Positions 51,401-61,960 are shown, counted from the first letter of the stretch. The stretch is DNA of 64,000 nt from TPA_inf: Saccharomyces (GCA_000146045.2 BK006939.2:1-64000), one strand, 5' to 3'. Numbers and translations: made by a program. The notes: generated by a model not told the origin, from the letters alone.

Positions 51401-51539
51401 CATAAGACCATTCTTCTGCATCGTCGGGCAAATCTAATGCGGATAAGTCCTTTATTAATGCGACAGCTGCATGTAGACGCTCTTCTCGAAGATCAGAAGC
51501 TAGTTTAAAAAAAAGGTCTCTGTTGACTTTCCCTGTCAT
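48471..51539 (-). CDS. POL5: Pol5/Myb-binding-protein-1A-like nucleolar protein required for rRNA synthesis (1022 aa).
   Basis: The known N-terminus, MTGKVNRDLFFKLASDLR, is the internal Met at codon 29 of the ORF. The protein has an ARM/HEAT-like body and an acidic SESESE/DE-rich tail. Confidence 0.85.
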   Translation of the reverse strand: MTGKVNRDLFFKLASDLREERLHAAVALIKDLSALDLPDDAEEWSYVLNRLIKGLSSDRNSARLGFSLCLTEVINLAVNMPPGQRPKGLESTNEFLSTLSTILNVNVNEGTKKSMKGKDERGILFGKLFGLKSLLNEPLFSEIFVKDLEKGNTEFFIRFTEQLIDLALKKNWIKEPCFFTLFQTMKMLLPFMDESSAEKILLIYDKYDLTLTNEGLSTYLLLKYEGDESLIPSVLDLKNPGWKDNDPLARGNLPLLTKVLRNSSVIPDANGGLKETKKQKNTNWNPRLHFVWSVLLPLFGNGKLENTSHISKKRKKTNNKKVQNSIQFPEFWKMAVDESFFNEKASSERKYLGFLIIDAAFKAVPGSYIGFCFSQNVMRTLINQSIDSQRVLNKISQLTLDSIVKACEEDSANRLVPCLNAMLFGPHGSINFDKLTKSGTVSKLIAIKELPSTVLAQLLDVFFLQLQDKKGVLSHTLFALDSILHIVRAHKVEINDMDIMKPVLRPIVYMAFFKHTSDDLKLEQLHELAKERLYSILGELTINKEIRCKDPEINSWQYLTLKLILDIENSHVGDLINPLDENLENIKNEAISCLSKVCRSRTAQSWGLSTLLSMCLVQLYAGDTDSISVIEELCEFSKHENNSMVGITEILLSLLAQKKALLRKLSLIIWQQFIEEVGLEELQILLDILKARENKQGFAQLFEGEEEFEEIKEENDASEDESKTGSESESESESDSDDADEKDEEDEANEDILNIDKEATSALVKALNLPDNIVNDKGEVDLDQLEGLSDDGGDDEDEESMDDEKMMELDDQLSEIFKRRKEALSSISTGNQRKFEVKQSRENVISFKHRVVDMLAVYVKYCEKLTLANKSEHSNNLGGSLSKLVYFIIPMLKCVNETLDRPLADKISKLLKGKIFKIKVTAFKDMNKDIELMDLLKKTHKLMLTSKPGQHAAVFYSMCSTSSLFLSKLYVEIGGNDKLDELIDLYTATTKEWMQKGKCGPNIFIDFINWLSSKKQTVMDKE

Positions 51540-51711
51540 TTTTTTTGTGGACAAAAAGATGCACTTGTGGAAAGAATCACCCTTGTTAATGGATACCCGA
51601 TTCAAACTTCGAATTAAGTGCAAACCGCAGCCTCAGATTAATGTTAAATTGCCCTCTAAGGCAATTCTGGCCATCGCAATAAAATTTTTCGTGTTATTCA
51701 CGCTTTAAAGG

Positions 51712-51719
51712 CCGGGTAA
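51712..51719. promoter_or_regulatory. Reb1 binding site (CCGGGTAA, which is TTACCCGG on the other strand), about 175 bp upstream of the POL5 ATG.
   Basis: An exact match to the Reb1 core TTACCCGG. The RRPE-like AAAATTTTT is 20 bp away, at about 51686-51694. Confidence 0.4.
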
Positions 51720-52720
51720 AATGATAGCGTCCGTTGATTTTGAAGACTATTACTTTTGCGGATATTTTATGTCCGGTCTATCATATTTACCAATGCAAAA
51801 TAATATTTTGATAGTTTTTACCGCAGAGGCAGCCAGTAAGTTGGGAAGTTGCTCAGACCCATAGATACATACGCAGGAAAGGTTTTGTTTTCCTCCTTTC
51901 ATTATTGCAATTAACGTATACATAACTTGAAAAGCTGATGGGTGTCAAGCACGCCCATCAGCGCATCTGAAAGTAGCCTTGAAGGAACTGTAAGTTTCCA
52001 CTTTTCGAATCAGTTATTGGTCGTCAACCATTAGCAGAAGTAAGTTCAGATATTTAGATATACCCTCCCTCAACTATAACGATTAACAAGTGTTTACGAA
52101 CTAATGTAACAGACCAATCCCAAGAGAGTACGTACTAAGAGAAAATGTAAGGCTATGAAATGGACTAATATAACCATAGTAGAAATAGGTATATCTTAGT
52201 GAGTAATCGCCTAAATTAATCTTGTTTGCAATATAAATTGGAACTAAGTACAGTGAAAGACATCGATGGAAATAAAAAAATAACCATCGAAACTTGGTCC
52301 CAGAGTGTTGTCAAACGTTCAAGATGGTTTCTTTTCTAATAAAAAGCAAATTAGAAAACTATTTCACAAGTTAGTAATAATAGTAAAGAATCAAGCATGG
52401 AAAGCAAAGTAAGAAAAAAGAATGAAGTGAAAAGCAAAAAAAAAAAAAGATAAAAATGAAAAAACAAAAAAACGGAGGGTATAATCACATGCAGATATAA
52501 TTTTCGGAAATACATTATAGAAATATAATGTGTCACTTATCCTCTTCATTGTGGTTATCCAGAGAGGAAGAGAAGAGACAAAACAGATAGAAAAAGTATA
52601 ACCCTAGAATCGAAATCAAAAATTAGAAAATAAACGTATTGGAATTTTGTGCAATTATCATATTAAAATACAAAAACAATAAAAAAACTAAAAAGCTTTG
52701 AAACTTTCTTTAATTTTTTT

Positions 52721-53218
52721 CTAATTTTCTGGGATTTCGATTTCACCAGCATTAATGCCTTCAATGATATCATGGGGATTCTTGAAGTCAACACGACAGC
52801 CGACAGATTGAGCAGTACCTAAGATTTCCTTAGTAACGGAAGCCAAAGTTCTACCGAAGGATTTGTCTCTCATTTGTCTGGCAATTTCAATAATTTCATC
52901 CAATTGAATGTTACCACTGTGCTTGACGTTTTTGTCCTTCTTTCTGTCTCTTGGTGGTTCCTTCAAAGCAGTAATGACCAAAGAGGAAGCAGATGGGACA
53001 ACAGAGGCAGCAGCTTGTCTGTTTTGGATCTTTAATTGGACGGTAACCTTGATACCCTTGAATTCTTTGGTGGCCTTAGCAATATCTTCACCAACCTTCT
53101 TTGGCGATAGACCTAAAGGACCAATCTTTGGAGCCAAAGCAGCGGAGGCACCGACTTCACCACCAACGGCTCTTAGGTACAAGTATTTAACTTCATTAGG
53201 ATCAAACTTTGGAGGCAT
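52721..53218 (-). CDS. RPL12A: 60S ribosomal protein L12 (uL11), 165 aa.
   Basis: The full-length sequence [41 protein letters not shown]... is the L11/L12 family. No intron. Confidence 0.93.
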
Positions 53219-61351: not shown

Positions 61352-61433
61352 TAACATGATGACTAAGTTGTCGCCCCAAGCGGATCTTTGAAATGACTGA
61401 TTTTACAAACAACAAACACTGAAAATTCTGAAA
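61352..61433 (+). ncRNA. SNR67: C/D box snoRNA snR67. Its rRNA 2'-O-methylation guide function is known from the literature, not read here.
   Basis: C box ATGATGA at 61356-61362, an internal CTGA (D') at 61397-61400, a D box CTGA at 61428-61431 and a terminal stem ATTAA/TTAAT flanking the C and D boxes. The length is about 82 nt. Confidence 0.55.
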
Positions 61434-61698: not shown

Positions 61699-61789
61699 TT
61701 TGATGATGATTACACTCCATGCTAATCATGAACGTGTTCGATGTAAATTTGAATACGATGATTAAAATTGTTGTTTACGCTTTCTGAAA
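61699..61789 (+). ncRNA. SNR53: C/D box snoRNA snR53, the downstream member of the snR67-snR53 dicistronic unit.
   Basis: C box ATGATGA at 61703-61709, a C'-like GATGAT at about 61757 and a D box CTGA at 61784-61787. A T17 tract lies just upstream. The position about 265 nt after snR67 fits a shared precursor. Confidence 0.55.
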
Positions 61790-61889: not shown

Positions 61890-61960
61890 TGCGCAAGCCC
61901 GGAATCGAACCGGGGGCCCAACGATGGCAACGTTGGATTTTACCACTAAACCACTTGCGC
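61890..61960 (-). tRNA. tG(GCC): tRNA-Gly (anticodon GCC), 71 nt, no intron.
   Basis: The reverse complement reads GCGCAAGTGGTTTAGTGGTAAAATCCAACGTTGCCATCGTTGGGCCCCCGGTTCGATTCCGGGCTTGCGCA. It has A/B box features, the anticodon loop TTGCCAT and discriminator A. A T7 Pol III terminator follows on the tRNA strand (plus-strand aaaaaaa at 61877-61883). Confidence 0.93.

Follow-up and report, generated by a model that had tools for sequence, protein, structure and literature searches.

The stretch of DNA that we analysed (the window, 64,000 nt in all) appears to be the left arm of chromosome V of S. cerevisiae, numbered as in the native chromosome, judging from the identity of POL5 and from published snR80 coordinates that fall inside the interval studied here. 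This interval is bounded by two protein genes, both on the minus strand. On its upstream side an ORF at 52721..53218 encodes a 165-aa ribosomal protein of the L11/L12 type (RPL12A), and on its downstream side lies the ORF of POL5, which has its ATG at 51539 and a product that is 99% identical to S. cerevisiae proteins. The gap between them is 1097 bp when counted between the listed ORF ends, in agreement with the 1.1 kb given by an earlier model reading of the same DNA (the sequence-only reading), and 1181 bp when counted from the RPL12A stop to the POL5 ATG. It is made up of the 3' flank of RPL12A together with the snR80 promoter, then snR80 itself with its terminator, and finally the promoter of POL5, with SNR80 transcribed in the direction of RPL12A and POL5. 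Read along the minus strand, the order is a conserved block (52689-52479), a T-rich tract, a TACTAAC motif with an inverted repeat, snR80, motifs of the Nab3/Nrd1 type, about 400 nt of poorly conserved sequence that includes a palindrome at 51934-51962, and then Reb1, RRPE and PAC-like motifs. We consider it close to certain that the interval is an ordinary, fully occupied stretch of chromosome V and that SNR80 is the only RNA gene in it.

The RNA gene was identified by scanning the whole window with Rfam at gathering thresholds, where RF01269 (snR80, H/ACA box, clan CL00033) matched 52320..52145 on the minus strand. The match covers the full length of the model (positions 1-176 of 176) and scores 223.2 bits with an E-value of 1.9e-39, compared to a gathering score of 40. 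The Rfam model ends 2 nt before the 3' end at 52143, which we placed by the rule that an H/ACA RNA ends three nucleotides after its ACA box. From the match and this rule the gene is put at 52143..52320 and the mature snR80 would be about 178 nt long (approximately 52320..52143). A permissive Rfam scan of the interval (E-value up to 10, both strands) found no other family near its gathering score, and the extra matches that it returned were only sub-threshold C/D snoRNA noise (E-values of 1.4 to 9.6, far below gathering). The published record agrees with this placement, as the Fisher paper lists 'V 52135<52357 ... snR80' in Crick orientation (PMC2551606), a span which contains the Rfam match. 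The gene found here likewise sits on the Crick strand of chromosome V between RPL12A and POL5. When it is compared to snR80 as recorded in SGD (SNR80) and Rfam (RF01269), the family model is matched almost perfectly over its full length, the position, the orientation and the two rRNA targets are the same and there is no difference of substance; it is the gene itself. We are thus highly confident that the RNA in the POL5-RPL12A gap is the known snR80, on the minus strand. The sequence-only reading had placed snR80 between these two genes, and both the full length RF01269 match and the coordinates in PMC2551606 bear this out. Its suggestion that the gap holds an unannotated small RNA does not survive, as snR80 is already known and is a curated, experimentally studied gene.

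The architecture of the RNA can be followed on the minus strand from one end to the other. The segment 52320..52143 has a minimum free energy (MFE) fold of -31.8 kcal/mol (z -2.3) with the shape hairpin-hinge-hairpin-tail. The 5' hairpin, as drawn by the structure line of the Rfam alignment, occupies 52226..52314 and carries the first guide pocket, whose strands are ACAACACUC on the 5' side (52311-52303) and AUUUAUAUUG on the 3' side (52238-52229). The H box ACAAGA (52220..52225), which conforms to ANANNA, lies in the unpaired hinge of both the MFE and the consensus folds. It is followed by the 3' hairpin (52150..52212, placed from the Rfam alignment and the MFE fold) with the second pocket, whose strands are GAUUACUCA on the 5' side (52208-52200) and UCCAUUUCAUA on the 3' side (52164-52154). 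The ACA box at 52146..52148 and a final UUU (52145-52143) complete the molecule, and both boxes are invariant in the five species compared below. The minus strand therefore has the two hairpins, the H-box hinge and the ACA at 3 nt from the inferred 3' end that define the H/ACA architecture.

We extracted the pocket sequences from the Rfam structure line and scanned them against every U of one fungal rDNA unit. This unit was the metagenome contig OLNP01004951.1, a complete fungal rDNA unit on which Rfam annotates a 5S in opposite orientation, an 18S exactly 1800 nt long, a 5.8S and the initial 2.3 kb of the LSU, and which matches the yeast numbering of both sites. Among all the U residues of the contig, the best site for pocket 1 was 18S U759 (4+7 bp) and the best site for pocket 2 was 25S U776 (7+7 bp). 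A match as good was seen in 0.4% of the shuffled rRNAs for pocket 2 and in 12.6% of them for pocket 1. The complementarity of pocket 1 is modest (11 bp) and would be unconvincing if taken alone. The best sites of both pockets coincide with the published targets, SSU-759 and LSU-776. Torchet 2005 assigned these two sites to snR80, and the Fisher paper (PMC2551606) gives a positive Northern blot for the RNA; the findings of Schattner 2004 and Torchet 2005 are cited here by way of PMC2551606 and PMC9045821. Strains deleted for SNR80 are described in the literature as losing the expected modification sites in nanopore profiling. The second-best match of pocket 1 was 25S U777 (6+4 bp), which adjoins the target of pocket 2.

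By our own count on the Rfam structure line, the distance from the top of the pocket to the box is about 14 nt for the H box and 16-17 nt for the ACA box. Both pockets pair with rRNA around an unpaired U-N, with the U at roughly the 14-16 nt from the box that H/ACA pockets have. The likeness to canonical H/ACA guides such as yeast snR5, snR8 and snR82 is extensive: they share with snR80 the hairpin-hinge-hairpin-tail shape, the ANANNA H box and an ACA 3 nt from the end, as well as bipartite pockets flanking an unpaired U-N, independent Pol II transcription and NNS termination. Where snR80 departs from them is in its ACA distance, which is at or slightly past the usual 14-16 nt, and in its 5' pocket, which pairs only 4+7 bp. 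By analogy with its family, snR80 would be part of an H/ACA snoRNP with Cbf5, Nhp2, Gar1 and Nop10 and would pair with pre-rRNA through the two internal-loop pockets. The 5' pocket would then set 18S U759, and the 3' pocket 25S U776, at the base of the upper stem, where Cbf5, going by what is established for the family, would isomerise each target U to pseudouridine.

The sequence-only reading had placed its H/ACA snoRNA on the plus strand, at about 52085-52255, with ATAGTA as the H box, a 3' hairpin closed by CTTAGT/ACTAAG, and an ACA at 52250-52252. The motifs it named are present within one base of where it put them, and the segment overlaps 113 nt of the real gene and is for that reason conserved. 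ATAGTA is indeed at 52176-52181, but CTTAGT is at 52195-52200 and does not begin at 52194, and the ACA does not follow immediately on ACTAAG (52243-52248), as there is a T between the two. No H/ACA family was found on the plus strand by Rfam, even at E-values up to 10. For the segment 52085-52255 the fold is no more stable than those of shuffled sequences (z +0.39), and the proposed closing stem is missing from its MFE fold. The composite pattern of an H-like box, 6-bp closing arms and an ACA is seen 16 times in the window, and the plus strand of 52085-52255 has by itself 8 matches to ANANNA and 3 to ACA. We rejected the plus-strand snoRNA, and we would give it practically no chance of being correct. 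The proposed stem in fact joins the 3' arm of the true hairpin 1 to the 5' arm of the true hairpin 2, and the published orientation, '52135<52357' (PMC2551606), is that of the Crick strand. None of the three proposed elements is genuine. The actual gene runs on the minus strand from 52320 to 52143, and its own H box and ACA are found there at 52225-52220 and 52148-52146. Every feature of the H/ACA family that can be tested computationally was found on this strand and none on the plus strand, and the plus-strand pattern of H box, stem and ACA is a product of chance. The biological significance of this outcome is small, as it confirms a curated gene. It is more useful as a case for calibration, in which the right gene was named and yet a model on the wrong strand was built from motifs (ANANNA, ACA and a 6-bp stem) that chance produces many times in a window.

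To look at conservation we reached the orthologous loci of a paradoxus-like Saccharomyces, S. mikatae, S. kudriavzevii and S. uvarum through their POL5 orthologues, which were used because a look-up with the RPL12A protein yielded only RPL12B loci (chromosome IV). The arrangement of RPL12, about 1.1 kb of spacing and then POL5 is present in all four. Each of them has at the syntenic RPL12-POL5 site, and in matching orientation, an snR80 that scores 205-215 bits. The snoRNA is nearly invariant in the five-way alignment. Its RNAalifold consensus, computed from 5 highly similar sequences, has 40 pairs, of which 2 show compensatory double changes, and only 4 broken cells. The compensatory changes are in the apical stem of hairpin 1 and occur in S. 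uvarum and S. mikatae. The structure is thus conserved, with support that is thin in five sequences this similar, and the independent study of Gao et al. reports three significant covariations for snR80 by R-scape. The linkage of POL5 and snR80 does not extend to Nakaseomyces, Kazachstania, Zygosaccharomyces and Kluyveromyces. In the loci of Nakaseomyces bracarensis, Kazachstania africana, Zygosaccharomyces rouxii and Kluyveromyces lactis there is no RPL12 upstream of POL5 and no snR80 within 4 kb of it, which made these four loci unusable for the covariation analysis, and they were left out of it.

How snR80 is transcribed and terminated is largely described in the literature, where SNR80 is listed as 'capped H/ACA' with no 5' extension and is reported to be independently transcribed, NNS-terminated and hrp1-sensitive. 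Roy et al. 2016 name SNR80 among the snoRNA genes whose NNS termination is roadblocked by Reb1p (PMC5052057). Placed on the interval, this would have Pol II transcribing SNR80 independently from a start at or near 52320 and the Nrd1-Nab3-Sen1 pathway terminating the transcript, backed by the Reb1 roadblock. The motif scan offers candidate NNS motifs at 52094..52140 on the minus strand, all within 50 nt of the snR80 3' end (UCUU at 52140-52137, UCUUG at 52125-52121 and GUAA at 52097-52094), which could play this role; the TCTT at 52125-52122 is invariant in the five species. The roadblock would most likely be the TTACCCG at 51719-51713 (minus strand), the only copy of this motif in the interval, with TTTACCCGG invariant in the five species. 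A single conserved TTACCCG downstream of the snoRNA is in keeping with the Reb1 roadblock given for SNR80 in that study. The candidate site lies 424 nt from the snR80 3' end. It is a promoter element of POL5 and probably also, if we are right to match it to the published roadblock, a block to snR80 read-through.

The POL5 promoter also contains two motifs on the minus strand at 51671..51689 that are invariant in the five species, AAAAATTTT at 51689-51681 and GCGATGG at 51677-51671. We take these to be an RRPE and a PAC-like element, motifs of ribosome-biogenesis promoters. Just upstream of the conserved Reb1 site, about 50 bp (about 51724-51776) are inserted in S. cerevisiae and absent from the four other species. 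This insertion contains CGG-N11-CCG (CGGACATAAAATATCCG, at 51759-51775 of the window), with the spacing that Gal4-type zinc-cluster sites typically show. Compared to the window, a second S. cerevisiae strain has 10 differences, all in the 540 nt downstream of snR80 (51540-52075). Nine involve a single base, with a 1-bp indel among them, and the tenth is an 8-bp indel at about 51899-51906. The two strains do not differ in snR80 or in the 400 nt upstream of it, and there are 0 differences over the 640 nt that take in snR80 and its upstream region.

On the upstream side of the gene, the motif scan of the entire interval found no consensus TATAWAW, either elsewhere or in the 40-120 bp upstream of 52320 where it would usually lie. 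We place the core-promoter region of snR80 at 52332..52376 on the minus strand, on the basis of two elements. One is a TACTAAC (52376-52370) that lies 50-56 nt upstream of the snR80 5' end and is invariant in the five species. The other is an inverted repeat, TTTTCTAAT/ATTAGAAAA (52358-52350 and 52340-52332), whose pairing is kept in all five Saccharomyces species via compensatory changes (TAAT/ATTA, TAG/CTA and TGGTAT/ATACTA). Because SNR80 is reported to be capped without a 5' extension, this region is probably promoter DNA, and TTACTAA is also a Yap-type site. The same absence of a 5' extension disfavours taking TACTAAC as an intron branch point or as part of a processed 5' leader. The splicing reading also finds little to work with upstream, where the only hexamers that resemble a 5' splice site are GTATTT and GCATGT, which are non-consensus or unconserved. 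If the TACTAAC and the inverted repeat were a true RNA element, they could act, for example, on RPL12A read-through transcripts.

Between the RPL12A stop and snR80 there is also a nearly invariant block of about 210 nt (52479..52689, minus strand), whose conservation across the five-way alignment approaches that of the snoRNA. This block is presumed to be the RPL12A 3' UTR with its poly(A) signals, overlapping a distal part of the snR80 promoter. The motif scan found a Tbf1-like CTAGGGTT in it at 52607-52600, and it also contains an 8-bp palindrome, ACATTATA-TTTC-TATAATGT, at 52531-52512. The possibility that the block is a 3'-UTR element common to the RPL12 paralogues was rejected, as it has no similarity to the 3' flank of RPL12B.

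The remaining feature is the palindrome at 51934..51962. The sequence-only reading described this hairpin exactly, as GCTGATGGGTG (51934-51944), tcaagca and CGCCCATCAGC (51952-51962), which on the plus strand form 11 bp with one G-U. An extra T-A pair extends it to a near-perfect palindrome with a 12-bp stem and a 5-nt loop, CAAGC. It is not a part of snR80, whose 3' end is 181-209 nt upstream of it, and the POL5 ATG is 395-423 nt downstream. Folded as RNA it reaches -21.7 kcal/mol on the plus strand and -19.6 kcal/mol on the minus strand, where the G-U wobble becomes an A.C mismatch, and z is about -6 on both. With a first-order Markov model of the window, about 2 hairpins of such quality are expected per 64 kb (both strands) and 0.034 per 1.1 kb, and 5 such loci were seen in the window. 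The palindrome is thus locally unusual but is unremarkable for a 64-kb scan. Its arm is not a dispersed repeat, having no second copy within the window.

This hairpin had been offered by the sequence-only reading as a signal of a small RNA, and here the comparison with the other species is decisive. In the five-way alignment none of the four other species can form the palindrome, and the columns it occupies rank with the least conserved ones of the interval. The fold of the paradoxus-like equivalent is no more stable than those of shuffled sequences (z 0.04), and the second S. cerevisiae strain has an uncompensated SNP in the stem, G-to-A at 51959. A conserved structured RNA would keep its pairing in the orthologues, and the 51934-51962 hairpin has no such pairing in the four other species, so that nothing supports a conserved small RNA at this site. 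What looked thermodynamically striking is a young, unconserved palindrome that is specific to S. cerevisiae and, as the alignment indicates, arose in its lineage.

The paradoxus-like sequence suggests how this could have happened. The right 18 nt of the palindrome (the loop and right arm, minus strand) agree at 15/18 positions with the left 18 nt of the paradoxus-like sequence once these are reverse-complemented (P ~4e-6), compared to 7/18 for the positional paradoxus-like orthologue. Template switching creates a perfect inverted repeat in one step, and short template-switch mutations and the correction of quasi-palindromes have reportedly been treated in a model by Ripley and by Loytynoja and Goldman in 2017. 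The most likely mechanism would be a short template-switch error in replication, in which 18 nt were replaced by a reverse-complement copy of the 18 nt next to them, and a later single substitution (T to C, minus strand) would have given the one G-U (A.C) pair. As with other short template-switch mutations, the clustered differences from the sister species would be explained by one reverse-complement copying event. Unlike in the reference cases, the origin is read here from one outgroup only and an extra point change is needed. The palindrome looks like a template-switch product, mainly from this single paradoxus-like outgroup sequence.

Given such an origin, we have to ask whether the palindrome could nevertheless be doing something, either as RNA or as DNA. 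As RNA it could be a functional stem-loop in 3'-extended pre-snR80 that aids 3'-end formation, either as a block to the exosome or as a nuclease or terminator signal. It is worth about -20 kcal/mol on the transcribed minus strand, it lies between the NNS motifs and the Reb1 site and would be expected in read-through transcripts, and it exceeds the local chance expectation given above. However, the four other species lack it despite having the same snR80, the downstream UCUU and the Reb1 motifs, its stem is disrupted by the uncompensated SNP within S. cerevisiae, and its surroundings are the least conserved part of the interval. The signal for Rnt1 (RNase III) is a long stem capped by an AGNN tetraloop, and the loop here reads CAAGC (plus strand) or GCUUG (minus strand). 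A processing stem-loop for Rnt1 is rejected on this account, and SNR80 is moreover listed as capped without an Rnt1-processed 5' extension. Because snR80 is NNS-terminated and Reb1-roadblocked, the stretch that holds the palindrome would be crossed only by unstable 3'-extended snR80 transcripts. Taken together we consider an RNA role very improbable.

A role in DNA fares no better, and we hold it to be just as improbable. The palindrome could be bound by a dimeric factor as a distal element of the POL5 promoter, or it could be a cruciform or a fragile site. In favour of this, the palindrome is near-perfect as DNA, lies some 400 bp ahead of the POL5 ATG and has the CACCCA core of a Rap1-type site in one arm. 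The Rap1 consensus is matched in this core only. The element is also unconserved in a promoter whose Reb1, RRPE and PAC-like motifs are invariant, and it is polymorphic in S. cerevisiae. A role specific to the lineage may be compatible with the lack of conservation. Most likely, then, the palindrome is without a selected function. There is some room, though not much, for the palindrome to have a lineage-specific effect on snR80 3'-end formation or on read-through into the POL5 promoter, or for the promoter inverted repeat and TACTAAC to be an undescribed core-promoter or RNA element, the two being taken jointly. Both are of mild interest, the palindrome for its apparent template-switch origin and the TACTAAC with its inverted repeat for being conserved upstream of snR80.

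Elsewhere in the window, the Rfam scan placed two C/D box snoRNAs near each other on the plus strand, snR67 at 61352-61433 and snR53 at 61699-61789, and a tRNA gene at 61890-61960 on the strand opposite to these two.
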